Shown: positions 14,909 to 64,000 of the stretch, in pieces
How the letters are laid out: the number at the start of each line of letters is the position of its first letter
How positions within the stretch are numbered: the first letter of the stretch is position 1
NCBI GenBank assembly: GCA_028716485.1
Contig: JAQUPS010000001.1
Span: forward strand, 11,935 to 75,934
Source: Patescibacteria group bacterium
GTDB taxonomy: Bacteria > Patescibacteriota > Patescibacteriia > Patescibacteriales > WJLG01
Length of the DNA: 64,000 nucleotides
Direction of reading: 5' to 3'
The notes under the pieces: generated by a model
The model's database searches: none
What the model saw: the letters and a program-made list of their open reading frames with translations, nothing else
Told to the model about the DNA's origin: nothing
Translations under genes and position numbers: made by a program

Positions 14909-15568
14909 TTATTTTGTAAATTTAAGCGAATATACTATCGCTTTCATCATAGCGTCTTGATTTTTAGGATTTCCTACGTCCATAGCTTCGAATCTGAAAA
15001 TTTTATTTCCTTTTTTGACGCTATAGGCATAAGCCCCCAAGGATACTGTCTCGGCAAACGCTCCATCGCTCGTAGGAATATTAATTTTAATAAAATCTTC
15101 GTGACTGTTTTCTACTCGCGCTTGTGATTTCTGCAACCAATCATTTATTGACGAATTATCAATTTGCGCAGATACAGCTACCGGCGCACGGAACGGATCG
15201 TTGTCGACAGGATCTTCTATTAAAAGTTGCCCGCCATTTTCCAAGGAACCATTATCAGCAGATAACGTTATCGACCAATTTTTCGGTGCGCTAATTTCAA
15301 AACTGTATTGTTTGTCTTTAAATGTTTGCCAACCGGCTTTATCAATCGCTACCGCATCAAGTTCCGCAAAGCTCGGATGAATTATTCCTAATGATTCCGA
15401 GGGCAAGGCGGTAGAAGCCTCAGGGGAAGAGCCGGATGTTTTCTGGGGCCATTGAATATTTTTACTTTCCTGCAAAACTATTTTTGATTGATATTCTTGG
15501 TAAATAACTATACCTGCTAAAATTAATAATAAAGCAAAGGCGCTTATAATAATTGAATTTTTTTTCAT
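14909..15568 (-). CDS. Hypothetical secreted/membrane-anchored protein
   Basis: N-terminal hydrophobic segment; no recognisable motif; long ORF with terminator. Confidence 0.5.
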   Translation of the reverse strand: MKKNSIIISAFALLLILAGIVIYQEYQSKIVLQESKNIQWPQKTSGSSPEASTALPSESLGIIHPSFAELDAVAIDKAGWQTFKDKQYSFEISAPKNWSITLSADNGSLENGGQLLIEDPVDNDPFRAPVAVSAQIDNSSINDWLQKSQARVENSHEDFIKINIPTSDGAFAETVSLGAYAYSVKKGNKIFRFEAMDVGNPKNQDAMMKAIVYSLKFTK

Positions 15569-15659
15569 AGTGGAAAATTATAATTATAATAATTTAGTCT
15601 AAATTTAAAATTTGATGGAGCGTTTAATTCTTAAACGCTCCATCTTGAACAACGGATTA

Positions 15660-16304
15660 CTAATGCGGCTGAACGTGATAGACAGTGTACCCCGTATTGA
15701 GACCGCCGGAATTGGGGCCAGTCCATTTAACAAAAGAATCACAGCAAACGGAATGCGTGCCCACCGAATCATGCCCCACATAATTACAGTCAAGCCAGGT
15801 CATATTTTTAGAGTCTTTACTGATCAAAAATGCCGTGTGCGGTCCGGTTGAATAAGATCCGTCTTTATAGCGGCACCGCCATCTCATCTGGATAATATCC
15901 ATACCATTCATACTTGAGGGCGAAACAGTTCCTCTGCTAACGACATTCACGCCAATGCAAGGATTGCCGCAATAATCATTACTCATCCAAGAACGATCAT
16001 TGTTAGTGTTATTTGGCAGCGTGATGCCGCTGGCTGCCAAGACAACGTTCGTGACCCACGGTTTGCATTCTACGCCGACATTTTTCCCGACATAATAAAG
16101 CCCGACACTAAAAAGCTTGGAATCTCTCGACGTTTGCGTCATGGCATTCCAGGTCTGAAGAAGCGTAGCGTCAATGCAATTTACAACCTTAGCCAGACCA
16201 TGAGGGGTCGACTGTTCTTTGCTGCCATTCACGGAGTAATTACTGTTTCCGCATCCGAAAATAGCAGCCGACAAAATGAGAGGCAGAATCAACTTCGTCT
16301 TCAT
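15660..16304 (-). CDS. Cys-rich lipoprotein (11 Cys), hypothetical
   Basis: Signal peptide + FGCG lipobox; SD AAAGGAGAT upstream; a 14-bp perfect palindrome (15627-15654) downstream. Confidence 0.55.
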   Translation of the reverse strand: MKTKLILPLILSAAIFGCGNSNYSVNGSKEQSTPHGLAKVVNCIDATLLQTWNAMTQTSRDSKLFSVGLYYVGKNVGVECKPWVTNVVLAASGITLPNNTNNDRSWMSNDYCGNPCIGVNVVSRGTVSPSSMNGMDIIQMRWRCRYKDGSYSTGPHTAFLISKDSKNMTWLDCNYVGHDSVGTHSVCCDSFVKWTGPNSGGLNTGYTVYHVQPH

Positions 16305-16502
16305 GATCGAATCTCCTTTGGTTTAAAATTTTTTTATTTCCTGACAATAGTAATTAATTTTGAAAAGAACAAACGCTGAAAGAACATCAACTCGAATCCA
16401 TTTTTTCTCCCTGTTAAGATTATATGATTAATTAACGACTATTAACAGGGTAGCAAAAAAAAATGGAATCCGTCAAACTTTAGTCAAATTATATTCTAAA
16501 AT

Positions 16503-16527
16503 GCAAAAACCGCCCGATCAAGGGCGA
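16503..16527 (-). terminator. Rho-independent terminator after rpsT
   Basis: CGCCC-ttgatc-GGGCG followed by TTTTTG on the minus strand. Confidence 0.65.
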
Positions 16528-16541
16528 TTTTTGAAGGAATT

Positions 16542-16811
16542 TTATTTGGCTTTTTTCATCTTGTTCAGGCGCAAGTTGAGGCGGGATTTGCGGCGGGCGG
16601 CGGTATTTTTCTTAATGACGCCTTTCTGGGCGGCCTTGTCGAGCGCTTTCATAGTCAATCTGACTAATTCAGCGGCTTTGGCATCCTTAGCTTCGATCGC
16701 CTTATGGCTTTTCTTGATCAAGTCTTTGATGCTCACTTCAATATTATTATTGAAGGCGCGGCGCTTGATGTTCTTGCGATACTCTTTCGCGGCTGATTTG
16801 ATATTAGGCAT
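16542..16811 (-). CDS. rpsT: 30S ribosomal protein S20
   Basis: MPNIKSAAKEYRKNIKRRAFNN...KGVIKKNTAARRKSRL. Confidence 0.85.
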   Translation of the reverse strand: MPNIKSAAKEYRKNIKRRAFNNNIEVSIKDLIKKSHKAIEAKDAKAAELVRLTMKALDKAAQKGVIKKNTAARRKSRLNLRLNKMKKAK

Positions 16812-17006: not shown

Positions 17007-17077
17007 TCGGGCTGCTGGGAATTGAACCCAGTCTACATGCTCCCAAAGCACGCGTACTACCGGTATACGACAGCCCG
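17007..17077 (-). tRNA. tRNA-Pro (anticodon UGG)
   Basis: Acceptor CGGGCTG/CAGCCCG, anticodon loop TTTGGGA, T-arm CTGGG-TTCAATT-CCCAG; manual fold. Confidence 0.7.
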
Positions 17078-17197
17078 TATCGGATATCAGATGTCGGATT
17101 TCAGATGTCGGATAAACCAGTTAAATAATTTTATTTAAACAAAATATTTTGAACACTAAATCCGATATCTGACTTCCGAAATCTGAAATCCGGTATG

Positions 17198-17269
17198 TGC
17201 CGAGGGTGAGAATCGGACTCACGACACAGCGATTTTCAGTCGCTTGCTCTACCACTGAGCTACCTCGGC
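17198..17269 (-). tRNA. tRNA-Phe (anticodon GAA)
   Basis: GCCGAGG-TA-GCTC-AGTGGTA-GAGC...anticodon loop CTGAAAA...GTGAG-TCCGATT-CTCAC-CCTCGGC-A. Confidence 0.85.
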
Positions 17270-17362
17270 CCTTCAAAGTGCAAAGTACGAGGTGCGAAGT
17301 GCGACTTGATTATATCAAAATATAATTCGCACTTCGAAATTTGCACTTCGAAATTTGGATTG

Positions 17363-17434
17363 TTGCGGGGGCCGGATTTGAACCGGCGACCTCCAGGTTA
17401 TGGGCCTGGCGAGCTGCCACTGCTCTACCCCGCG
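17363..17434 (-). tRNA. tRNA-Met (anticodon CAU) with an unpaired C1:A72 and A73; likely the initiator tRNA
   Basis: CGCGGGG...anticodon loop CCCATAA...CCCCGCA-A. A 1:72 mismatch is the bacterial initiator hallmark. The anticodon stem has only two of the three expected G-C pairs, and position 33 is C. Confidence 0.75.
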
Positions 17435-17537
17435 GCACTTCAATTGAAAATTAAAAAAGAAAAAAGAAAAAATTTAGTAATTATACCGGCGCAAATTATT
17501 TTTTCTTTTTTATTTTTTAATTTTTATTTGATTGGTG

Positions 17538-17611
17538 TGGGCAATGATGGAATCGAACCATCGACCTCGTCATTATCAGTGACGCGCTCTAGCCATCTGA
17601 GCTAATTGCCC
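17538..17611 (-). tRNA. tRNA-Ile (anticodon GAU)
   Basis: GGGCAAT-TA-GCTC-AGATGGCTA-GAGC...CTGATAA...GATGG-TTCGATT-CCATC-ATTGCCC-A. Confidence 0.85.
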
Positions 17612-36552: not shown

Positions 36553-36975
36553 TTACCGGAAATTCATCCAATAGATCGGGCCAAGCGCCAAAGATAAAAA
36601 AATATTAACCATCAAGGCGGCGGCCAGAAGGATGTGGGCAATAAACTTAAAATCCTTTTTTTTCAAAAAGACGAACAACAGCAAAAAATTCAGCGCGCTG
36701 ACAAATAAGCCGAGAATGGGAATCATAAATAATTTGTTGGCATCGCCGACCAGATCAATGCCGAAATCAACGGTGAAGTGCAGGATCGTCAGGTTGCTGC
36801 CGACGCGGCGCGCGAAAAGCCAAACAAATCCCCAAAGCGAAATATTCTGTAAAAGGAGGATGGCCAGATAAACTTTGATAAAAAGCAAACCGAAAACTTC
36901 CGCCAAATTATAAGAAATTTTGCCTCTCAACAAATCAAGGTGATGATAAATTTCGGATAAACCAAGCATAAACAT
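36553..36975 (-). CDS. Small polytopic membrane protein, hypothetical
   Basis: 140 aa, 4 predicted TM. Confidence 0.5.
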   Translation of the reverse strand: MFMLGLSEIYHHLDLLRGKISYNLAEVFGLLFIKVYLAILLLQNISLWGFVWLFARRVGSNLTILHFTVDFGIDLVGDANKLFMIPILGLFVSALNFLLLFVFLKKKDFKFIAHILLAAALMVNIFLSLALGPIYWMNFR

Positions 36976-39392: not shown

Positions 39393-39806
39393 CTAATTCT
39401 CCTTCCCGAACAGCCACTTTTGCCAAAGATAAGCGATAATGAAAACGGCTAACGCTCCCAGAATATCGGCTAAACCGACTTTTTTATTGGCTATAAAAGC
39501 GGTCAGCAGCACAGCGGCCGGAAGCAAAAAAAGAAAAATATCGCTTTTCAATTTATCGGAAAAAGTCAATTGCAAGGTCAAACCCAGATTGCCTTCCCGC
39601 TCTTTTTTCTTGGCTTTCTCGCGCCAGAGCTTCAGATTGATCAGAAAAATCAAGGCCAAAACCGCCAGCGGAACTAAGGCTTCCAAGATGCGGCGGAAAT
39701 TTTCGAAATTATCGCCGGCGATAAAATAAATAATGCTTAGGCCGATAATAAGAATGGCGAAAACAAAATTTATAAAATTAATCAACATGTCTTTGGCGGA
39801 AACCAT
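39393..39806 (-). CDS. Small membrane protein, hypothetical
   Basis: 137 aa, 4 TM, internal KKKEREG loop. Confidence 0.5.
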   Translation of the reverse strand: MVSAKDMLINFINFVFAILIIGLSIIYFIAGDNFENFRRILEALVPLAVLALIFLINLKLWREKAKKKEREGNLGLTLQLTFSDKLKSDIFLFLLPAAVLLTAFIANKKVGLADILGALAVFIIAYLWQKWLFGKEN

Positions 39807-39818
39807 GGAATTATAGAT

Positions 39819-40163
39819 TTATTTTTTATCTTCGGGCTGGCAATTTTTATTAAGCGCCGAATCGCGCACCAGTTGAGTGATGTCTTTGTCCATTTTCTCC
39901 ACTTTCAGGCGCAGGCGGAAATTCATATAAAATAAGACGGCCACGGCGGCATAAAGGATTATTTGGATGCCGGAAGCGGAAAATCCCAAACGCGCGGCCA
40001 GCGCGTCCAAATCTTTGACGAAAATAATTCCGGACGCGGCGATCAGCCAGAAAACCAGCCAGAAAATAAATTCGTTGGCCGAAACCTTGCCGCGCTTTTT
40101 CAGGACAAACAAGCGTAAGACAAAAAATAAAATTATTATCAGAGCGATTAGTTGTTGTAACAT
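39819..40163 (-). CDS. DUF2304-like small membrane protein (GT2 partner)
   Basis: 114 aa, 3 TM, charged C-terminal tail; immediately upstream of the GT2 gene, as is typical for DUF2304/GT2 pairs. Confidence 0.5.
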   Translation of the reverse strand: MLQQLIALIIILFFVLRLFVLKKRGKVSANEFIFWLVFWLIAASGIIFVKDLDALAARLGFSASGIQIILYAAVAVLFYMNFRLRLKVEKMDKDITQLVRDSALNKNCQPEDKK

Positions 40164-40232: not shown

Positions 40233-40904
40233 TTATTCCATTATCTTCGCCAGCAATAAATCTTTGATGATCCGCACTCCCCCGCCGAAGTTCTGGCCAA
40301 AATCGTCGTAGCGCACCGTAATCGGCGCTTCGACGACACGCAATTTATTTTTAAAAACCTTGGCGATGATTTCCGAGCAATGCGCCATGCCGTCCTGATT
40401 GATCTTGATTTTCCGCCAAGCCGAGGAAGTCGCGGCGCGAAAACCGGATTGCGGATCGGTGAGCACGACGCCAAAAAGCAGAAGGTTAACCAGCCGGGCG
40501 ATGGGCATAAAAAATTTTTCTTTCAAAAACGGCAGCTTGGATTTTTTTTCCAAGAAGCGCGAACCGAAAACCACGTCAGCTTGGCCGGAAATCAAAGGCG
40601 CGAGAATCGAGGGAATATCAGCGGCGGAAAACTGGCCATCAGCGTCAAAATGAAAAATTATCTCCGCCCCGCGAGCCAGCGCGTATTGATTGCCGGTTTC
40701 CAGCGCCGCGCCCTGGCCGCGGTTAAGATGATGTTCCAAAACGATCGCCCCGGCCGCAGCCGCAATTTCTTTGGTATTGTCGATAGACCCGTCATCAACC
40801 AAAACAACCTCATCGACCAGCGGCCTAACTTTCATCACCACCTCGCCGATAGTTTTTTCCTCATTCAGGGCGGGAATAATGCAAAAAATCTTCATATATC
40901 TCAA
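40233..40904 (-). CDS. Glycosyltransferase family 2 (dolichyl-phosphate hexosyltransferase-like)
   Basis: IIPALNEEKTIGEVV...VVLVDDGSIDNT...DADGQ DXD region. Confidence 0.85.
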   Translation of the reverse strand: MRYMKIFCIIPALNEEKTIGEVVMKVRPLVDEVVLVDDGSIDNTKEIAAAAGAIVLEHHLNRGQGAALETGNQYALARGAEIIFHFDADGQFSAADIPSILAPLISGQADVVFGSRFLEKKSKLPFLKEKFFMPIARLVNLLLFGVVLTDPQSGFRAATSSAWRKIKINQDGMAHCSEIIAKVFKNKLRVVEAPITVRYDDFGQNFGGGVRIIKDLLLAKIME

Positions 40905-40968: not shown

Positions 40969-42234
40969 TTATTCCGCGGCCTTTATCACAGCTTCAAGAG
41001 AAATCAGCCCGCCCAACGCCTTGATCAGGGCGTCTTCGGCCAAGGAATAACCGCCCTGTTTTTCCGGCTCGCGGCGAAGCGAAGAAAAATGCCCGGTCTT
41101 GATTATATTTTTTACTTCCGGAGTTATTTCCAAAACTTCAAAAATTCCGATCTTGCCCGCGACTCCCGAATTATGGCAGCGCGGACAGCCGGCGCTTTTA
41201 TAGAAAATCAAATCTTCGGGTTTGTTTATTCTGTTAGAAATAATTTTGTCGCGCATCAACCGGGACAATAATTTCCGCAATGACAATTTTTCTTCCAGGC
41301 GTCGCCGGCTTTCCCTGCCGATCTTTTGCTTTGTTAAGCAAAAGGGACAATTTTTATCAGCCAATCTTTGGGTGATGGCCATTTTGGCATTGGCTGAAAA
41401 TGAAGACAAGGTTACGCCCGCCTCCTGCAAAAAATTTAAAGCAACGACGATATCGCGGCTATAAATGCCCGCCAAGATAAAGTGTCCGGATTGAGCCAAA
41501 TTAAAAGCGGCTTCCGCGGTTTCACGATCATTGATATCGCCGATCATGATCACGTCGGCATCTTGGCGCTTGAGCGCGTTAATCGCATTTTTAGCGCTGA
41601 ATCCGTCGAGTTTGCTCAAACGGCTCTGATTTATTTCCGGCAAATCGCAGGCTACATCCTTTTCCACCGTGGCGATATTCAGTTCCGGATGTTTGAGAAA
41701 ATTGATAAAACTGTAAAGCGTGGCGGTGCGGCCGGAATTGAAATCGCCGATTACCGCCGTCAGCCCCTGGCGGTTGAGCAGATTTTTCTTGACAATTTCC
41801 AGGGCTTTCGCGTTCAAGCCCAGCTGCCCCAAGCCGAACAGCTGAAATTTTTCTTTAGCCAGATTGACGGTAATTTTTTCTCCCGCTGAACCGGAACGGA
41901 CGCACAGCGAAAAAATTATTTTATAACCCAGAAAATCTTTTTTGAATTTCCTGCCGCCGGCCGAATTATCAGCCGGATAATTCAACCCGGCCTTGGCTTT
42001 TACGCCGGCAATAACCGCCTGCTCCGCTTTTTTGGGCAGAAGCAAAGTATTTTTCAATTCGCCGTCGGCCATAAAATTAACCGCCAAATCTTTGGCTCGC
42101 GGCTCGAATAAAATCTCTTCCGCCTCGCAACCGATGGCAAAATTAAAAATCTTGTCGATCGCCCGGATGACTCTGACATCGGAGCTGAGAGATAATTGTT
42201 CTTTTACTTTTTCTCTAATTGATTGCATAAACAA
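40969..42234 (-). CDS. GspE/PilB-family secretion-type ATPase homolog with degenerate catalytic motifs (probable pseudo-ATPase)
   Basis: GspE N2-like region (GRKFKKDFLGYKIIFSLCVRSGSAGEKITVNL). Walker A reads GDFNSGRT (canonical GPTGSGKT: the Lys is Arg and the second Gly is lost). Asp/Walker-B box DVIMIGDINDRETAEAAFNLAQSGHFILAGIYSRD (canonical GEIRD...TGHLV..TLHTN). Tetracysteine CPFC...CPRC retained. Confidence 0.75.
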   Translation of the reverse strand: MFMQSIREKVKEQLSLSSDVRVIRAIDKIFNFAIGCEAEEILFEPRAKDLAVNFMADGELKNTLLLPKKAEQAVIAGVKAKAGLNYPADNSAGGRKFKKDFLGYKIIFSLCVRSGSAGEKITVNLAKEKFQLFGLGQLGLNAKALEIVKKNLLNRQGLTAVIGDFNSGRTATLYSFINFLKHPELNIATVEKDVACDLPEINQSRLSKLDGFSAKNAINALKRQDADVIMIGDINDRETAEAAFNLAQSGHFILAGIYSRDIVVALNFLQEAGVTLSSFSANAKMAITQRLADKNCPFCLTKQKIGRESRRRLEEKLSLRKLLSRLMRDKIISNRINKPEDLIFYKSAGCPRCHNSGVAGKIGIFEVLEITPEVKNIIKTGHFSSLRREPEKQGGYSLAEDALIKALGGLISLEAVIKAAE

Positions 42235-42358: not shown

Positions 42359-43375
42359 CTAATCACCAATCCCCTTCAACCCTTTGCTTGCCCGCAGTTC
42401 GGCAATGGTTTTTTCCAATCCTTTATCCAAAGTGACAATCGGCAGCCAGCCAAGGTTGTTGGTGGCGAGAGATATGTCCGGCAGGCAAAGCTCGGTCATG
42501 AAGAAATGCGACGGCTCATAAACTATTTTTGATTGCGAACCGATCTGGTCGATTATTTTTTGCGCTAAATCAGATAGCTTGATATCGACATCGGAACCGA
42601 CATTAAGCGGGCCGGTCAGATCGGTTTCCATAATTTTCAGCGCCGCGTCAATCACGTCGGAAACATAGCAGAAAGAGGAAGTGAAGCCTTCTTCGCCGTA
42701 AATCACCAAATCCTGATTGTCCAGGGCATTGCTGACAAAATCCGGAATCATCTGGTTGTCGCGCAACGGCATCCGCGGGCCGTAAGTGCGGAAGACGCGG
42801 ATAATTTTCGCGTCAACGCCATGCATTTCGCGATAAGTATGGACAAAAGTTTCGGCAAACCGCTTGCCTTCGTCATAACAGGCGCGGTCGGAAAGAAAAT
42901 CAACGGCGCCGATATCATCTTCTTTTATTTTCGGATTGTCCGGACGGCGCGAACCATAAACCACCGAGGAAGAAAAATGCAATAATTTCGCCTCGTATTT
43001 TTTGGCCAAATCCAAAACATTTTTCACCACGTAAGAATTGGCCAATAAAGTCGCTTCGCGATTTTTCTGGAAATTTTTGGCTGAATTCGGGCAGGCCAGA
43101 TTATAAATTTCCTGGATGCCCTGGAATTGGATTTTGAATTTCTGCAGCGATTGCTCGCTTTCCAGATCGATCGGCTGGCTCAAGTCGTGCCGCAAGAAAG
43201 CGAAATCCGGCTCGGCGAAAAGATGGTCGATATTCCGTTCATTGCCGGTGGAAAAATTATCCAGGCAGATCACTTTGCTGGTCTTGATCAATTCGTCGCA
43301 AAGATGCGAGCCGATAAAACCGGCGCCGCCGACAACGAGAACGTTCTTTTTTTCAAATATTGCGCGCTTAGCCAT
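42359..43375 (-). CDS. NAD-dependent epimerase/dehydratase of the UDP-glucuronate decarboxylase (UXS) type
   Basis: GGAGFIGSHLCDEL, YDEGKR, RVFRTYGPRM. Confidence 0.8.
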   Translation of the reverse strand: MAKRAIFEKKNVLVVGGAGFIGSHLCDELIKTSKVICLDNFSTGNERNIDHLFAEPDFAFLRHDLSQPIDLESEQSLQKFKIQFQGIQEIYNLACPNSAKNFQKNREATLLANSYVVKNVLDLAKKYEAKLLHFSSSVVYGSRRPDNPKIKEDDIGAVDFLSDRACYDEGKRFAETFVHTYREMHGVDAKIIRVFRTYGPRMPLRDNQMIPDFVSNALDNQDLVIYGEEGFTSSFCYVSDVIDAALKIMETDLTGPLNVGSDVDIKLSDLAQKIIDQIGSQSKIVYEPSHFFMTELCLPDISLATNNLGWLPIVTLDKGLEKTIAELRASKGLKGIGD

Positions 43376-45772: not shown

Positions 45773-45833
45773 TTAGCATTTGTGGATAAAAAAAACGGCG
45801 CCTTTTGCAAAGCGCCGGTTTAAAATCCGTCTA

Positions 45834-46262
45834 TTATTCTTTAACCTTATCGGGAGCCAGCCATTTACCAATCAGCTCAACTGTAATACTTCTCCAATCC
45901 AAAGGTTTCTTATAAAATCCATTATACAACCCGCGGCTTTTAAGAGGAACTACCTCATTAAAATCTTTGCCGGTCATTAGGAAAATTAACCCGGCAAAAC
46001 CGCTTTTCCACGATTTACGAGGGTATCTCAATTCGGCGGCGATAGGATAACTCAACTTTTCGCCTTCTAATTGCCCATCCAAAAACGCCAGAGCGATTTT
46101 AGAATAGTTCTCTATCACCTCCAAATATTCCTTCGTTGCCGCAAGCGAATCAAGGACGACAACCTCGTATTCTTCAGGCGAAAAAGCAGTATCAATAAAC
46201 AATTTTGCCAAATCGGCAAGATCCGGCTGATCTTCAACGATTAGAATGACTTTCTTGGCCAA
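45834..46262 (-). CDS. Stand-alone response-regulator receiver (REC) domain protein
   Basis: KVILIVEDQPD, FLDGQL (phospho-acceptor Asp), conserved Lys region. Confidence 0.65.
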   Translation of the reverse strand: MAKKVILIVEDQPDLADLAKLFIDTAFSPEEYEVVVLDSLAATKEYLEVIENYSKIALAFLDGQLEGEKLSYPIAAELRYPRKSWKSGFAGLIFLMTGKDFNEVVPLKSRGLYNGFYKKPLDWRSITVELIGKWLAPDKVKE

Positions 46263-56711: not shown

Positions 56712-56830
56712 ATTCCCGGCGCTGGCCTACTCTACCAGGGCTCAGGCCCAAGTACCATCGGCGCTAATGAGCTTAACTTCTGTGTTCGGGATGGGAACAG
56801 GTGTAGCCTCATTGCGAAAGTACCGGGAAT
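56712..56830 (-). rRNA. rrf: 5S ribosomal RNA
   Basis: Minus sense ...CCCATCCCGAACACAGAAGTTAAGCTCATTAGCGCCGATGGTACTTGGGCCTGAGCCCTGGTAGAGTAGG...; helix I closes with CCCGG/CCGGG. Confidence 0.85.
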
Positions 56831-57216: not shown

Positions 57217-57998
57217 CATGTATAGTTCACTTATTTCTAAGTGCATAGACTATATCTTCACCCTCTGTTCCGTATTCGTAAAAAGGAACGAATTCGGGGT
57301 AGGGGTCGGCATATTATAGAAGTTTAGATCCGGATTATCCGGTACCTTCTATATCTCCCTGCTTGGGATCAGTCGTTACGGGGTCAAACCAAGTATCTTT
57401 TTCATCCGCGCGCCGGTCTGGCGCTGGGCGGACTTATAATTATCTTTCTGAATTCCGATGATGCAAGACAAAATATTTCCGCGATCTTTTTTAGACAATT
57501 CAGACAGACGTTTATTCGTTAACATGCTTGTCGCCTTTAACAAATATTCCGCCTGGCTTTTTTTGAATCTGATAAACGGATAAAGCTTTGCCAAAATTTT
57601 ATGGCATTGCTCATGTCCATTTATTCGCAATTCGGTCATTCCGTCTTTTCTTTTTGACAGATAACCGATGCCAAGACTTTGTCTTAGCCAATGAAGCGGC
57701 TCGTCATGGCGGCTGTCTTGATAAAAACAGATAGTAGCCATGAAGCGCCAGCCTCTCGGCGAATCGCTTCGTTTTTTAATTTGCAACATCAGACTGCCGT
57801 CTCCATCAAGGAAACCGGCAATATACGCCAAATCTGTTGCTTTTTTCGTGATACTTAATCGACTTCCCACGGTATTGACTTAAAATTAATTATGGTCCTT
57901 AAGCATTATGATACCATAAATATTTTGAAGCTTCCACCGTTATTAGCCGTATATTCGAGCGGGATTACTCCCGCAAGTAGCATGACCCTTTCGGGTCT
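57217..57998 (-). mobile_element. Putative group I intron A in 23S (near the sarcin-ricin loop region, about E. coli 2656) carrying a LAGLIDADG ORF
   Basis: Exon ...CCCTAGT | intron ... CATG | ACGAGAGGACC exon. Intron ends in G and the 5' exon ends in U. Boundaries by eye. Confidence 0.45.
57376..57870 (-). CDS. LAGLIDADG homing endonuclease (intron-encoded, single-motif type)
   Basis: LAYIAGFLDGDGS motif; 164 aa; same strand as 23S. Confidence 0.85.
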   Translation of the reverse strand: MGSRLSITKKATDLAYIAGFLDGDGSLMLQIKKRSDSPRGWRFMATICFYQDSRHDEPLHWLRQSLGIGYLSKRKDGMTELRINGHEQCHKILAKLYPFIRFKKSQAEYLLKATSMLTNKRLSELSKKDRGNILSCIIGIQKDNYKSAQRQTGARMKKILGLTP

Positions 57999-58072: not shown

Positions 58073-58753
58073 CGCTTGTTACCAAACGTATGGACTATAC
58101 CACCATCCGGTTTTAACCGGAGGTCAACGTGTTAGCAATGCTCTTCGCATCACTCTCTCCCTGTGCGGGATCAGTCTCTACGGGGTTAAATTATGCCTCT
58201 TCCTTTTTTTGGAGTAGTTAAGTTCCCTGAACTTATCTATCATACCAGCCAATTTTTCAAAATCTTTTTGATCTCTGACGTTTTCTTTCATCTCAAATAT
58301 TTTAATCATCAATTCCGCCTGACGTCTTTTTAAGATCAAAAAAGGTTTTACTTGGGACAGAAAATCGACTATCTCATCTTTTTTATTGATGACATATTCC
58401 ATTATTCCGTCTTTTCGTTCTCTCATATAACCGGCTCCGGCAAGAGCGCAAACTCTCGCGAAGTTTTCTTTCTCTTTTTTGGCTTGGAAAAATGCGATGC
58501 AAGGAGAAATCTGGAATCCGAACCGATAGGTCGGATTTGGTTTCAATCTTACATAGATGCTTCCATCGCCATCGAGAAAACCGGCTAAATAAGCCAAATT
58601 TTTGACTGTGATGTTTTTAGACATAATCAACTTCCCTCGGTATTATCCTAACATGTGACAGGTTATTTTGCAATAACTAATGCCAGGACTTCACCGATAT
58701 GAGTTGACTTTTTCGAATTCGATTACTCGAATAAGCCGCCAAATTGACGGTTT
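58073..58753 (-). mobile_element. Putative group I intron B in 23S (about E. coli 2586-2593) carrying a LAGLIDADG ORF
   Basis: Exon CGAGCTGGGTT | intron | ...ATGCGTAAGACAGGTTGG exon (homolog of TAGAACGTCGTGAGACAGTTCGG); 74-nt exon between introns A and B matches E. coli spacing. Confidence 0.5.
58178..58630 (-). CDS. LAGLIDADG homing endonuclease (intron-encoded)
   Basis: LAYLAGFLDGDGSIYV; 150 aa; the C-terminus ...HNLTP parallels ...LGLTP of the first endonuclease. Confidence 0.85.
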   Translation of the reverse strand: MIMSKNITVKNLAYLAGFLDGDGSIYVRLKPNPTYRFGFQISPCIAFFQAKKEKENFARVCALAGAGYMRERKDGIMEYVINKKDEIVDFLSQVKPFLILKRRQAELMIKIFEMKENVRDQKDFEKLAGMIDKFRELNYSKKRKRHNLTP

Positions 58754-58772
58754 GAACCCAGCTCGCGTGCCT

Positions 58773-58803
<31 letters not shown>

Positions 58804-59356
58804 GCTTCTACACCCCCAGGATGAGACGGGCCGACATCGAGGTGCCGAACCTGGTCGTCGCTGTGGACGCTTGGACCAGACTAGCCTGTTATCCCTAGAG
58901 TAGCTTTTATCCGATGAGCTTCCACCATCCTATATTGGATGGTCGGATCACTAAGTTCTGCTTTCGCAACTGCTCGACGTGTCAGTCTTGCAGTAAAGCC
59001 GGCTTGTGCCTTTGCGCTATCTCCCGGGTTTCCATTCCGGGATAGCCGACCTTTGTAAACGCCTCAGTTACTTTTTATGAGGCATCCGCCCCAGACAAAC
59101 TACCCACCAGACACTGTTCCCCGGAAGGATTCACTTCCTAGGGTAAGAATTTAGAACAAACAAGGGTGGTATCTCACTGGTGCCCGAAGGCTCCCACCTA
59201 TTCTGAACATGCGTATCCCAAATCCAATATCAAGTTATAGTAAAGCTTCATAGGGTCTTTTCGTCCAGCTATGGTTAATGAGCATCTTCACTCATCCTGC
59301 AATTTCGCCGAGTTCTTCGTTGAGACAGCGCCCAAGTAGTTACGCCATTCAAGCAC

Positions 59357-59388
<32 letters not shown>

Positions 59389-59395
59389 GCACCTT

Positions 59396-60430
59396 CTTAA
59401 TATTTCTATTAAGCTTGGACTATTTCTTATCCCAAATTAGGGATCTCAATGTTTAGTCTCTGAGGATTAAAAATTAATCCTGCGCGTTTGCCCCGTGTAT
59501 TTTCAGATTTTTACCGCCAACTTAATGGCTTGGTACTGAAAATCTTTTGAGGATTTCCACGCATTTTATTGAGTATTTATAGACAACTATAACTTTCGTT
59601 ATAGCCAGGCAGCGGATTTATATGAATCGTCCCAGTCTTTCTGCAATCTATTATTTTCAAATAAATTGCAAAACCTTAGGACGATTCATTAATGTTAAAC
59701 CTCTTTTAGATTTCCCGAGTCTTCGGGACTTTATGTTTCCATAAAGATCGGACTATATCATTCACGGCTTTCCGGACGGAAAGCGCGCGATTCGGCGTAT
59801 AGTCTCTGGGGATTATCTACTCGCGATTGTTCAAAATCGCTTTGGTTGTATTTTCTCTTTCTTCCGCGGCCGGCATTTAATTCTTCTCTTAGCTCAACGA
59901 TCTTTTTTAAACCGTCTTCATTTAAATGCTCTTTGCCGAAAACTAATTCGGCGATCCGGCAGAAGATAGAAAAATTCTTCTTTTTCGTTTGGGAAAGGAA
60001 ATAAAATTTCCGAAAAAACGGAATCACTTTCTCTTGAATGGAAAGCGGGTTGCTGACTACAAACATATGCAATCCGTCGCGCCGTTCAACTAATCTGCCG
60101 CAGCCTAAAATCTTTTTAAACTGCGATAAGATATAACTTTCCTTTTGGGAAACGTTAAATGTCAGAACGACTTGCCAGCCCATTTTATGGTCCAGCCTCT
60201 TTCTCAAAGAGACATTGAAACTTCCTTCGCCATCGGTAAAACCGGCAAAATAGTAACCTATTTCCGGTTTTATGTTGTTTAACCAATTTTGATTCATAGA
60301 TTCTTTCCTGCGGATTGTCCGCCAATGACTTTAAAAGTCATGTTAACTTTTTGATTTTTACTGCGGATTAAATTTCCCACGAGTACAAAAAGTTTGGGCG
60401 GATGTTCCCGCAAATAGCCAAATTTTTTAA
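59396..60430 (-). mobile_element. Putative group I intron C in 23S (about E. coli 1917-1923 region, domain IV) carrying a LAGLIDADG ORF
   Basis: Exon ...GATAACTATGAAC | AT-rich intron | AAGGTGCTAAGCGAAATTCCTTGTCGGGTAAGTTCCGAC exon. Confidence 0.5.
59758..60297 (-). CDS. LAGLIDADG homing endonuclease (intron-encoded)
   Basis: YYFAGFTDGEGSF motif; 179 aa. Confidence 0.8.
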   Translation of the reverse strand: MNQNWLNNIKPEIGYYFAGFTDGEGSFNVSLRKRLDHKMGWQVVLTFNVSQKESYILSQFKKILGCGRLVERRDGLHMFVVSNPLSIQEKVIPFFRKFYFLSQTKKKNFSIFCRIAELVFGKEHLNEDGLKKIVELREELNAGRGRKRKYNQSDFEQSRVDNPQRLYAESRAFRPESRE

Positions 60431-61726
60431 CTACAATTTTGTTCATAGTTATCGCCGGCGTTCATCCACGCTTCAGTTCAGGGCTTCGCCTTGCGGCTAA
60501 CCCCTCGCCTTAACGTTTGGACACTGGCCAGGCGTCACTCCCTATACATCCTCTTACGAGTTAGCAGAGAGCTGTGTTTTTGGTAAACAGTCCCTTGGGC
60601 ACTTTAGCTGCGGCCTATCTTGCGATAGGCAGGCCTTCTTGCGAACTTACGGCCGATTTTTTGCCGAGTTCCTTAACGAAAATTCTCTCGTGCACCGTTA
60701 GTCTTCTCGACTTGCAAACCTGTGTCGGTTTTAGTACGGTTGCCGTTTCCTTAACCCTAGAGATTTTTCTGGGAAGCTCCTCCCCTCAAATTGACGATCC
60801 ATTGCTGGACCATCTGCAAACGGCTCCTTGAAATATCGCTCCGGATTTGCCTGGAGCTATTCTTGAAGCAATTAACGCATATACCAATATCGCGCTTGAG
60901 GTTCGAAACTTCGTTATCCCATCAGCAGAAACGGTAGTGCTGGAATATTAACCAGCTTATCCATCGGCTACGCCCCCATTACAAAGGCCTCGTCTTAGGA
61001 CCGACTAACCCTGGGCCGATTTACGTTGCCCAGGAAACCTTATGCTTTCGGTGGGCAGGGTTTTCACCTGCCTTTATGCTACTCATGCCAACATTCTCTC
61101 TTCTTGCCGCTCCACCACGTCTCGCGGCGTGACTTCAGCGCAGGCAAGAATGCTCCTCTACCGCTCCAAATAATTAAATTTGAAACCCGTATCTTCGGTA
61201 ATATGCTTAGCCCCGGTAAATATTCGGCGCGAAACAACTTGACTAGTGAGCTATTACGCTATCTTTAAAGGATGGCTGCTTCTAAGCCAACCTCCTAGTT
61301 GTCGCAGTCACGACACCACCTTTTACACTTAGCATATATTTAGGGACCTTAGATTACGATTTGGGCTGTTTCCCTTTTGACCGATGAAGCTTAGCCCCCA
61401 TGGTCTGACTCCCGAGTTATGTTGATTGGTATTCGGAGTTTGGTTAAGAGTAATATCTTGCGACTTACCCTCATTCAGTGCTCTACCCCCAATCATAAAC
61501 ACTCGAGGCTAGCCCTAAAGCTATTTCGAGGAGAACCAGCTATTGCCTAGTTCGATTGAAATTTCATCCCTAACCACAAATCATCCCCTAGTGTTGCACG
61601 GCTAGTGGGTTCGGTCCTCCATCCGTCTTTCGACGAACTTCAACCTGTCTGTGGTTAGATCACCAGGCTTCGGGTCTTATACATGCGACAAACGGGCTAT
61701 TAACCCTCGCTTTCACTACGCCTCCT

Positions 61727-61828
61727 CCCGCACCTTTTGCACAAACATCATTATTTATCATCGAATATAATGCTTATGATTATGTCAATAATTTTTATTA
61801 TCAACACCTTTTTTCAAAAGGTGCGGGA
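61727..61828 (-). other. 23S intervening sequence (IVS) in helix-25 region, ORF-less, bounded by CCCGCACCTTTTG / CAAAAGGTGCGGG
   Basis: AT-rich ~75-nt insert between inverted repeats; the following exon aligns to E. coli 23S around 600-700. Confidence 0.6.
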
Positions 61829-61961
61829 TTAGGCAAGCCGCATACAATAAACTCGTTGGCTCATTCTTCAATAGGCACGCCGTCACCCTGGCTTGCGCCA
61901 AGGCTCCGACTCCTTATAAGTATATGGTTTCAGGTACTATTTCAACTCCCTCACCGGGATG

Positions 61962-61998
<37 letters not shown>

Positions 61999-62334
61999 AT
62001 CATAAAAAGTATTTAGTCTTGGATCATAGTCGACCCGGATTCACGCGGGATTTCACGAGTCCCGCGCTACTTAAGAATAATAAAGACGGTTCAATGATAC
62101 TTGTCGCGTACGGGGCTATCACCCTCTTTGGCCAAGCTTTCCAGCTTGCTTCTGCTAAATGTCATCACATCCCGCTTCGTCCATCCCAAGGGACAAAATA
62201 TACTATTCTTACAACTACCCATGAACATGTGGACTTGGATCCTTCCTAACGCCATACCCGAAGGCACAACATTATTCAGTTCACGAGATTTAGACTGGTC
62301 CCCTTTCGCTCGCCACTACTTGGGGAATCATCCA

Positions 62335-62428
62335 GCACCTTTTGAACATAACAATTTATCTTAATAAATTTTTATTTTTCATAAAAATATTAAGAAAAAA
62401 TCGTAATGTTTTATTCAAAAGGTGCGGG
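62335..62428 (-). other. 23S IVS (domain I, about E. coli position 200), ORF-less, bounded by GCACCTTTTGAA / TTCAAAAGGTGC
   Basis: AT-rich insert replacing a short E. coli segment between GGAAAAGAAAT and GATTCCCC. Confidence 0.55.
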
Positions 62429-62489
62429 ATTTTTTATTAATTTCTTTTCCTCCGGCTACTAAGATGTTTCAGTTCACCGGGTAATCTAT

Positions 62490-62593
62490 CTCGCACCTTT
62501 TCGGCAGAGCAACTTTATTTTAAAACTTTTTCGAGTTTTATAAAAAGTTACTAAACAGTTGGAATTTCTTTTCAACTGCCGAAAAGGTGCGAG
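62490..62593 (-). other. 23S IVS in helix 9 (about E. coli 130-150), ORF-less, bounded by CTCGCACCTTTTCGGCAG / CTGCCGAAAAGGTGCGAG
   Basis: 18-bp perfect inverted repeat enclosing a 68-nt AT-rich insert; helix 9 is a classic IVS site. Confidence 0.6.
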
Positions 62594-63010
62594 ATCATCC
62601 TGTCTTCAACAGGATAGGTTTCCCCATTCGGAAATCTTCGGCTCAAAGGTTGCTTGCCACCTCCCCGAAGCTTATCGCAGGCTGCTACGTCCTTCATCGT
62701 CTTTTTATGTCAAGGCATCCACCATATACCCTTAATGAGATTTTCCCACATTCTTATCGCTAAGAATGTGTTTGCTCATTTTTACTTCTTGCTATATTTA
62801 ATAACTTTAAACTTTTTGAAGTTTATAGTTCATTAACCTTTTCTAGACTTCTTTTAGACCTCTTCTTTTTTTCTTTACCTCTTCGCCTCCCCCGTCGGGA
62901 GACGAAAATTATCTAAGTATTCAGTTGTCAAAGTTCTTTACGATAGCAGTATTTCTGAAAACAATTTTTAAAAAAATTACTTTCAGAATTCTAATATCAT
63001 TTTATAATTC

Positions 63011-63308: not shown

Positions 63309-64000
63309 TTACATGGCTCCCAGGCTTTTCAGCTGGCTCTTGGCCACCTCGTCGCTGATTTTTCCGGACTTGAACAATTCCCGCAAATCGCGTTCGGCGC
63401 TGATCATGCCGTCGGCCGAACCGGACTCGATCACGCTTTGGATCTGGGCGATTTTATTTTCGCGGATCAGATTGGACACGGCGGAATTCCTGATCATTAT
63501 TTCCCGGGTGGCGATTCGTCCGCCGCCAACCGCGGGCAAGAGACGCTGAGAGATGACCATCTCCAAAGTCATCGAAAGCTGGGTCCTCACCTGGCCTTGC
63601 TGATCAGAAGGAAAGACATCAACGATACGGTCAATGGATTGCGCGGCGTTATAAGTATGCAAAGTCGCCAAAACCAAATGGCCGGTTTCCGCCAAAGTAA
63701 TGGTGGCGGCGATGGTTTCCAAATCGCGCATTTCTCCGACCATGATCACATTCGGATCTTGTCTTAAGGCGTGCTTCAAACCGGATTCGAAAGTCGGGAT
63801 ATCGCTCCCCAGCTGGCGCTGAATGATGATGCTTTTATTCGGCTTGAACAAGAATTCAATCGGATCCTCGAGCGTGATTATTTTACGGCTGTAATTATCG
63901 TTGATGTAGGCGATGATAGCGGCTAAAGTCGTAGACTTGCCGCAGCCGGTCGGGCCGGTTACCAGCACCAAGCCGCGATTATGATGGATCATTTCGGTGA
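63309..64000 (-). CDS. pilT: Twitching-motility ATPase PilT (type IV pilus retraction ATPase); 5' end beyond the window
   Basis: Canonical Walker A GLVLVTGPTGCGKSTT, Asp box DPIEF, Walker B/His box RQDPNVIMVGEMRDLETIAATITLAETGHLVLATLHT. Confidence 0.85.
   Translation of the reverse strand, partial: TEMIHHNRGLVLVTGPTGCGKSTTLAAIIAYINDNYSRKIITLEDPIEFLFKPNKSIIIQRQLGSDIPTFESGLKHALRQDPNVIMVGEMRDLETIAATITLAETGHLVLATLHTYNAAQSIDRIVDVFPSDQQGQVRTQLSMTLEMVISQRLLPAVGGGRIATREIMIRNSAVSNLIRENKIAQIQSVIESGSADGMISAERDLRELFKSGKISDEVAKSQLKSLGAM

Follow-up and report, generated by a model that had tools for sequence, protein, structure and literature searches.

The window analysed here comprises 64,000 nucleotides (nt) of contig JAQUPS010000001.1 from a Patescibacteria group bacterium (assembly GCA_028716485.1, positions 11,935 to 75,934 of the forward strand), and the subject of our analysis is a minus-strand gene for a PilB-like protein that lies among genes for glycosyltransferases and cell-wall synthesis. 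The original prediction, made from the sequence alone, had described its product as a PilB/GspE-family ATPase with a destroyed catalytic site that retains its zinc finger and N2 domain. The open reading frame (ORF) at 40969-42234 (minus strand) spans 421 amino acids (aa) with an alternative TTG start at 42234; an ATG two codons further on, at 42228, is the start in orthologs and in the NCBI record MDD5527399.1. The features of the gene are as follows:

40969..42228, minus strand: coding sequence of the PilB-like predicted pseudo-ATPase, 419 aa, made up of N2, a C-terminal domain of ATPase fold and a zinc module of the Cys4 type, lacking N1
42184..42228, minus strand: N-terminal 15 residues MQSIREKVKEQLSLS, conserved in the ortholog clade with K9 and L12 invariant, modelled with a low predicted local distance difference test score (pLDDT)
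41935..41958, minus strand: N2 segment GGRKFKKD, aligned to canonical QDGR[FI]; the canonical Q and D are gone
41725..41748, minus strand: degenerate Walker A motif GDFNSGRT (PilF: GPTGSGKS), with Lys replaced by Arg and the canonical Pro, Thr and Gly gone
41650..41670, minus strand: degenerate Asp box TVEKDVA (PilF: TIEDPVE), with the first Glu kept and D-P and the second Glu gone
41515..41547, minus strand: degenerate Walker B region MIGDINDRETA (PilF: MVGEIRDSETA), with Glu replaced by Asp and the Arg of GEIRD gone
41452..41490, minus strand: degenerate His box SGHFILAGIYSRD (PilF: TGHLVIATLHTND), with the second His replaced by Tyr in this copy
41176..41349, minus strand: tetracysteine zinc module CPFC ... 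CPRC, with a long insertion between the CxxC pairs, which lie at 41338-41349 and 41176-41187

Affiliation of the protein with the PilB/GspE family is evident from its match to the Pfam family T2SSE (PF00437; E = 7.8e-52, 176.6 bits versus a cutoff of 24.9, residues 18-416). The solved structures nearest in sequence are Thermus thermophilus PilF, Geobacter PilB and Vibrio GspE/EpsE (E = 1e-45 to 1e-35), with 25-31% identity in the core. The NCBIfam equivalogs are missed by a wide margin, as scores of about 180-200 bits overall against the PilB/GspE/TfpB models compare with cutoffs of 617-850 bits (TIGR02538, 199 bits versus 676; TIGR02533, 188 versus 630; NF007755, 196 versus 617). An AlphaFold2 model computed with the ortholog alignment as input reached a pLDDT of 83.7 and a predicted template modelling score (pTM) of 0.70, and the best Foldseek matches to this model were PilF (5oiu), PilB (5tsh/5zfr) and EpsE (1p9w), with E-values of 1e-37 to 1e-33 and TM scores of 0.72-0.81. 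Both CxxC pairs are present, and their four cysteines (C294, C297, C348 and C351) recur without exception in the 29 aligned orthologs (29/29), marking a predicted zinc site. This is in line with the notion that fold and zinc site were kept when the catalytic apparatus was destroyed. For the N1 domain (T2SSE_N, PF05157) no match was obtained in the protein; its N-terminus corresponds approximately to residue 165-175 of canonical PilBs of 560-585 aa, and all clade members are about 420 aa long. The N-terminal 15 residues may represent a partner-binding helix.

To read the catalytic motifs, the protein was aligned residue by residue to PilF with HMMER, and 31 clade members were compared with 76 canonical Patescibacteria PilBs recovered from GTDB genomes. 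In the canonical proteins the listed catalytic motif positions are each invariant (76/76). Where these carry GPTGSGKT, TIEDPVE, GEIRD and GHLVLSTLHTND, the PilB-like protein reads GDFNSGRT, TVEKDVA, GDIND and GHFILAGIYSRD, and the substitutions originally called in Walker A, Asp box, Walker B and His box (His to Tyr) were each recovered in the PilF alignment, a pattern that chance would by no means produce. The Walker A Lys is found in only one of the 31 clade members, its place being taken by Arg in 24 and by C, Q, I, T, L or V in the others, so that the gene of the window is not a lone decaying copy, the concern raised together with the original prediction. The Walker A Pro is absent throughout (0/31), the Walker A Thr is present in 30/31, and a P-loop pattern G-x-x-[ND]-S-G-x-T is conserved across the clade. 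In the Asp box, the first Glu is retained in 31/31, D-P in 0/31 and the second Glu in 1/31. The Walker B exchange of Glu for Asp applies to this copy but not to the family, since only four other members share it and 26/31 keep Glu; the Walker B Arg is missing from all members (0/31), and the final Asp (D234) is present in 30/31. The first His of the His box occurs in 23/31 and the second in 4/31, the latter position being freely variable.

The damage extends beyond the motifs named originally. A threshold of at least 95% conservation among the 76 canonical PilBs defines 82 positions, of which the clade has lost 37 and kept 29. Among the lost positions are the Walker Lys, the two His and eight Arg (R51, R75, R107, R122, R217, R233, R266 and R291 in the numbering of the PilB-like protein); those kept are mostly glycines, along with a few acidic residues and core positions. 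About 20 invariant residues are new and specific to the clade, for example K9 and L12 in the N-terminal helix, G379-H380 and Y394. The N2 domain, described as conserved in the original prediction, has indeed kept its fold but has lost its conserved Arg residues. In its segment GGRKFKKD, a position where canonical PilBs have Arg, Lys or His (42, 32 and 2 of 76, respectively) varies among K, R, S, G, N and T in the clade, and F95 and K96 of the same segment are fixed in a clade-specific manner. The protein thus resembles PilB, PilF and GspE (EpsE) in the fold of its N2 and C-terminal domains and in its tetracysteine zinc module, and differs from them in the absence of N1, the Walker A Lys, the D-P...E of the Asp box, the Walker B Arg, the second His and the eight Arg. 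As N1 and essentially all phosphate-contacting or catalytic residues have been lost, the protein almost certainly would not hydrolyze ATP and probably would not bind it either.

A search of 5.8 billion proteins gave a clearly delimited set of about 30 proteins, 38-100% identical and each some 420 aa in length; the matches ranked below this set were canonical PilBs of 560-620 aa with at most 30% identity. The clade is monophyletic and found in one small lineage of Patescibacteria, bacteria with ultra-small cells; one of its members is labelled Falkowbacteria. In the 29-ortholog alignment, 36 columns are invariant and about 42 further ones are at least 90% conserved, the four Cys included, and neither frameshifts nor stops interrupt the full-length ORF in about 30 lineages, among which identity falls as low as 37%. 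Pairwise ratios of nonsynonymous to synonymous substitution rates (dN/dS) amounted to 0.15-0.29 in measurable pairs, not near 1 as decay would have it, with the qualification that dS values of 1.1-1.8 are close to saturation and make the ratios rough; pairs below 40% identity, with saturated dS, were left out. The adjoining epimerase, GT2, GT4 and 137-aa protein genes (see below) gave values of 0.04-0.17. Since catalytic residues are lost, the fold is retained and orthologs are under purifying selection, the PilB-like protein is, as far as its sequence can tell, a folded and selection-maintained pseudoenzyme derived from PilB.

The gene belongs to a long minus-strand array, and its position among glycosyltransferase genes was correctly described in the original prediction, as was a canonical PilT-type ATPase at the window end. 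The neighbours that matter for the following considerations, and the PilT fragment, are listed here:

42359..43375, minus strand: NAD-dependent sugar epimerase/dehydratase of the SDR family, upstream neighbour, 91% identical in close orthologous loci
40233..40904, minus strand: predicted polyprenyl-phosphate sugar synthase of glycosyltransferase family 2 (GT2; PF00535), downstream neighbour, of the GacI-like type
39819..40163, minus strand: DUF2304 small membrane protein (PF10066) of the GacJ/Rv3632 type, predicted partner or activator of the GT2
39393..39806, minus strand: 137-aa polytopic membrane protein, following DUF2304 in nearly all orthologous loci
63309..64000, minus strand, running off the window: fragment (3' part of the gene) of a canonical PilT-type ATPase with the motifs GPTGCGKS, LEDPIE, GEMRD and TGHLVLATLHT, the one further T2SSE-family locus of the window

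In the order of transcription, the array begins with DUF4012, MreB, a family 4 glycosyltransferase (GT4), a small response-regulator-like protein and an S8 peptidase with FG-GAP repeats, continues with the SDR epimerase/dehydratase, the PilB-like gene, GT2, DUF2304, the 137-aa membrane protein, two GT4 and a 140-aa protein, and ends with MraY, FtsW/RodA, MurG, MurC and MurB. None of the ortholog loci examined departs from the order epimerase, PilB-like gene, GT2, DUF2304 and 137-aa protein, even at 37-38% identity, and in several of these loci the gene junctions measure 0-10 nt or have overlapping stop and start codons. Promoter and terminator scans around the PilB-like gene gave counts no higher than in shuffled sequence, and one strong terminator-like hairpin lies at about 45796-45817, upstream of the S8 gene. 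The best NCBIfam match of the GT2 was PpgS, a polyprenyl-phospho-GalNAc synthase (E = 4.5e-45, 154 bits versus a cutoff of 370). As in the GacI/GacJ system of Streptococcus pyogenes and the PpgS/Rv3632 system of Mycobacterium tuberculosis, the GT2 gene is immediately followed by a DUF2304 gene. GacJ and Rv3632 belong to the DUF2304 family and are small membrane proteins which, by binding the lipid-carrier sugar synthases GacI and PpgS, stimulate them (10.1101/180810). The known GacIJ and PpgS systems differ in having no PilB-like component, and the GT2 of the window stays below the PpgS equivalog cutoff. A tblastn search of the window with four canonical Patescibacteria PilBs retrieved only the PilB-like gene and the PilT fragment, 21 kb apart, and no canonical PilB. 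Genes for pilC/T2SSF, pilM, pilins or pilT were not found within about 8-10 kb of the PilB-like gene in the window, in L001-L005, L008, L086, L088 and L089, or in three contigs from JGI, so about 12 ortholog or relative loci were surveyed in this respect. Its separation from pilC, pilM and pilin genes sets the PilB-like gene apart from type IV-A pilB and argues for a link to the cell envelope rather than to the pilus.

We tentatively propose, with a rough probability of 0.4, that the PilB-like protein has a non-enzymatic task, as scaffold or regulator, in a pathway for lipid-carrier glycans or for the cell wall. It would serve as a scaffold or regulatory subunit either for a membrane-associated envelope-glycan pathway or for the adjoining cell-wall machinery, and could be thought of as a PilB frozen in an apo-like signalling state. 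We favour the envelope-glycan role because of the persistent embedding in the operon and because of a precedent in Myxococcus xanthus. There, PilB with the K327A mutation does not bind ATP and supports no pili, yet activates exopolysaccharide production (Black et al. 2017, PMC5544727), and apo-PilB was proposed to be the signalling state (PMC5544727). Like that mutant, the PilB-like protein has a dead Walker A motif, here naturally and permanently, and it is encoded inside a glycan operon. The M. xanthus protein, by contrast with this dedicated degenerate paralog, is a motor with full activity that has a second function besides. A Dif-type chemosensory pathway as in M. xanthus was not seen in the PilB-like loci examined, and the likeness in glycan output is one of analogy only.

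Several observations weigh against this proposal. No gene fusion, co-variation or physical evidence ties the PilB-like protein to GT2, DUF2304 or MraY; part of the synteny may simply follow from the stable gene order of these small genomes in general; and homology points to partners in the pilus machine. Residues that coordinate Mg (the Walker A Thr, the Asp-box Glu and the Walker B Glu/Asp) remain, and some ligand binding by the protein would be possible. The dN/dS values are rough, as mentioned, and the PilB-like orthologs, 37-70% identical where the epimerases are 72-91% identical, evolve faster, the gene having diverged about 3-4 times as fast as that of the epimerase. Further points come from a metagenome scan anchored on the epimerase, which yielded 80 loci with epimerase identities from 89% down to 43%. 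A PilB-like gene occurs in only the two closest of these loci, and in 42 of the 44 loci that have both epimerase and GT2 the two genes abut (median gap of about 6 nt), with no T2SSE gene. Obligate coupling of the PilB-like gene to GT2/DUF2304 was rejected on these grounds, and because the module works without the PilB-like protein in most relatives, any coupling to it would be lineage-specific and accessory. In favour of the proposal, the eight loci bearing a PilB-like gene are monophyletic in the epimerase tree in 198 of 200 bootstrap replicates (99%); taken together with the abutting epimerase and GT2 genes of the relatives, this indicates that the gene entered once, between two coupled genes of an older, self-sufficient operon, and was inherited vertically thereafter. 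A further point against the proposal is that related loci with epimerases 66-72% identical hold a pilus cluster without PilB directly after the epimerase. At L097:5033-10722, this cluster comprises, according to Pfam, PilC (T2SSF), three pilin-like genes (GspH / N_methyl), a 421-aa PilX-like protein and PilM; the other loci with PilC in this slot (L093, L094, L095, L100, L101, L103 and L108) were typed by a phmmer match to PilC only. Two candidates for PilB relatives in these sister loci were rejected: the ORFs of about 390-399 aa after the epimerase, considered as hyper-degenerate forms, are PilC (T2SSF), and the 421-aa ORF is a PilX-like minor pilin with an hhalign probability below 1% against the clade profile.

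The main rival explanation, and one which we consider only somewhat less likely than our proposal, is that the protein has an accessory role in the type IV pilus machine. The dead protein would sit in hexamers of its own or with PilB or PilT, docked on PilC/PilM, as a non-catalytic regulator, place-holder or brake of extension and retraction, and might couple pilus biogenesis to the expression of envelope-glycan or pilin-glycosylation genes. PilB, PilF and GspE are its nearest relatives in sequence and fold, the same genome has at least a canonical PilT, and the related lineage with pilC, pilins, a PilX-like gene and pilM right after the epimerase demonstrates that pilus genes can adjoin the operon. 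The zinc module is invariant and, according to a reference cited in PMC11656802, essential for function and activity of GspE/EpsE; PMC11656802 also reports that Vibrio cholerae PilT with an inactive Walker box still functions through PilU, and so offers a precedent for such motors acting without catalysis. Against this stands that pilC, pilM and pilins are never adjacent in the surveyed ortholog and relative loci. N1, which in GspE-type ATPases contacts the stator of the GspL/PilM type, is absent, and the loss of the eight conserved Arg makes a place in a working hexamer doubtful, several of these residues presumably acting across subunits in EpsE/PilB hexamers. Finally, shared ancestry with the insertion in the PilC-slot lineage was not supported: one ancestral pilus-cluster insertion for both lineages was considered, but their exclusive sister relationship received 0 of 200 bootstrap replicates.

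A broader explanation takes the short relatives of the protein into account. A profile search of 1.84 billion cluster representatives returned only about a dozen clusters, at 50% identity, of related short forms. These Patescibacteria proteins (P0119, P0124, P0125, P0127, P0128 and P0151, as well as P0104, P0107, P0111 and L008) are likewise N1-less and about 400-450 aa long, and their zinc loop has a long insertion as in the PilB-like protein. In P0119 and P0124, GxxxxGKT, TIEDxIE and the Walker B Glu are still in place, and the losses are confined to the Walker B Arg and the second His; in P0104, P0107, P0111 and L008 the Asp and His boxes are gone and GxxxxGKT is retained; and in P0106, P0030, P0128, P0151 and the core clade the Lys is gone as well. 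The less degenerate short relatives look like earlier stages of the same decay. P0104, P0111 and L008 occupy the same operon slot as the PilB-like gene, and since the true orthologs L008, P0104, P0107 and P0111 retain GxxxxGKT, the Lys was lost late and apparently more than once. In an unbootstrapped neighbour-joining tree these forms line up as successive steps away from canonical PilBs, the Lys being lost at least twice, although long-branch artefacts may contribute to this order; all our trees are distance-based. P0119 and P0124 divergently adjoin homologs of the pair formed in the window by MraY and the 140-aa protein, termed hyp140 here, and the wider family therefore stays near the cell-wall cluster. 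The hyp140 proteins (36553-36975 of the window, minus strand; L087:229-642; L089:7327-7722) measure 131-140 aa, have no family assignment and always precede MraY, and are possible partner candidates for the PilB-like proteins. From this material one may construct a history, unlikely in our view, in which the short N1-less family left the pilus machine and became a component of cell-envelope or cell-wall biogenesis. Early members such as P0119 and P0124, next to hyp140-MraY-MurD-FtsW, would still be ATPases; the Falkowbacteria-like branch would have made the hexameric motor serve a lipid-carrier glycan pathway as a hub of purely structural or regulatory nature; and the protein could dock on the actin-like MreB or on membrane glycan enzymes in the way PilB docks on PilM/PilC. 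If true, the secretion-ATPase fold would thereby have acquired a role in the cell that is new. Some proteins of about 1000 aa with two matched stretches, which ranked just below the clade in the profile search, were considered as evidence of heteromers of a dead and a live subunit and rejected, for they contain two fully canonical PilB cores whose domain scores had been summed. These tandem PilB-PilB fusions (P0102, P0103, P0105, P0108, P0109, P0113 and P0118, the first half of P0118 reading GPTGSGTT) would be covalently linked PilB dimers, three copies of which would make a hexamer.

Quite improbable, in our estimate, is that the PilB-like protein still binds nucleotides or acts as a weak ATPase by way of non-canonical residues, for instance as a sensor of nucleotides or nucleotide sugars. 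Arg at the Lys position in 24/31, the conserved P-loop pattern and the retention of the Walker A Thr (30/31), the Asp-box Glu (31/31), an acidic Walker B residue (31/31) and D234 (30/31) would be in line with such a capacity, as would GxxxxGKT in the same-locus orthologs L008, P0104, P0107 and P0111. However, six members have C, Q, I, T, L or V at the Lys position, which is incompatible with the required phosphate contact, and the Walker B Arg, both Arg of the N2 domain, the second His and the D-P...E of the Asp box are lost, the total of invariant Arg lost being eight. A functionless relic, be it a decaying pseudogene or the leftover of a lost pilus cluster, is highly improbable: the gene does evolve faster than every neighbour except the response-regulator-like gene, its catalytic positions drift freely and the operon works without it in most relatives, but an ORF intact across such distances with the dN/dS values given above, the many invariant and near-invariant columns with their four Cys and newly fixed residues, a confident predicted fold and the streamlined host genomes all stand against decay.

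Returning to our proposal of an envelope-associated, non-enzymatic role, we note that, to our knowledge, the motors PilB, GspE and PilT are viewed as ATPases by necessity. Other families of ATPases commonly include pseudoenzymes, and the concept itself is thus not new. In the full-text literature searched, we found no description of a naturally inactive PilB/GspE homolog, nor anything relevant among Patescibacteria-specific reports on PilB or secretion-ATPase pseudoenzymes. A term search of a 2024 review, which treats both the occurrence of multiple PilB homologs and the regulation of other processes by PilB, likewise brought up no natural pseudo-PilB. The pseudo-PilB family is small and confined to uncultivated Patescibacteria, and we infer its function. 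A conserved pseudo-PilB would constitute a natural experiment on what matters in such a protein without catalysis, namely the zinc module, the core fold and the newly fixed surfaces. It would lend evolutionary support to the idea, developed for M. xanthus, that an apo-PilB signalling state controls polysaccharide production, and it points to an unexplored wiring between pilus-derived proteins and the synthesis of envelope glycans or cell wall in Patescibacteria, whose surface biology underlies their episymbiotic lifestyle. On the practical side, some 30 database entries bear the name "PilB" or "GspE/PulE ATPase", which wrongly presents them as active ATPases.

Some further observations concern the operon and its relatives. 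The small response-regulator-like protein of the array (45834-46262, minus strand, 142 aa) has no Pfam match and weak similarity to an NCBIfam receiver domain; at the equivalent position of the P0024 locus, the protein was called Response_reg. It is very fast-evolving, with 37-39% identity where its neighbours are 70-99% identical. In two ortholog loci (L001:9260-12208 and L003:9270-12737), a giant secreted protein of 982-1155 aa, absent from the window, is encoded directly after the PilB-like gene, whose stop codon it overlaps in L001; its domains are FG-GAP and CLIPPER plus PG_binding_1 (L001) or Flg_new_2 (L003). The interval between epimerase and GT2 seems to be an insertion hot spot. On the JGI contig that carries P0028 (about 15080-16544), an accessory gene of the bAvd / 23S_rRNA_IVP family and a split RVT_1 reverse transcriptase gene lie between the GT4 genes of the orthologous cluster, likely representing a diversity-generating retroelement, and the P0024 locus is flanked by another RVT_1 gene. 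Three contigs with this Patescibacteria-type operon, those of L007, L008 and P0027, have public records that name them as 'Nanoarchaeia archaeon', 'uncultured Gammaproteobacteria bacterium' and 'Candidatus Methylomirabilis sp.', respectively, and are probably mis-binned or mis-classified contigs of metagenome-assembled genomes.

Elsewhere in the window, four tRNA genes are clustered at 17007-17611 (minus strand) and 5S rRNA is encoded at 56714-56827 (minus strand). The 23S rRNA gene (58484-62747, minus strand) measures 4264 nt compared with a model of 2925 nt and hence carries insertions; rRNA genes interrupted by introns are typical of Patescibacteria. A LAGLIDADG homing-endonuclease ORF at 59758-60297 (minus strand) was confirmed by PF00961, and two more LAGLIDADG ORFs at 58178-58630 and 57376-57870 (minus strand) were called from sequence motifs only.

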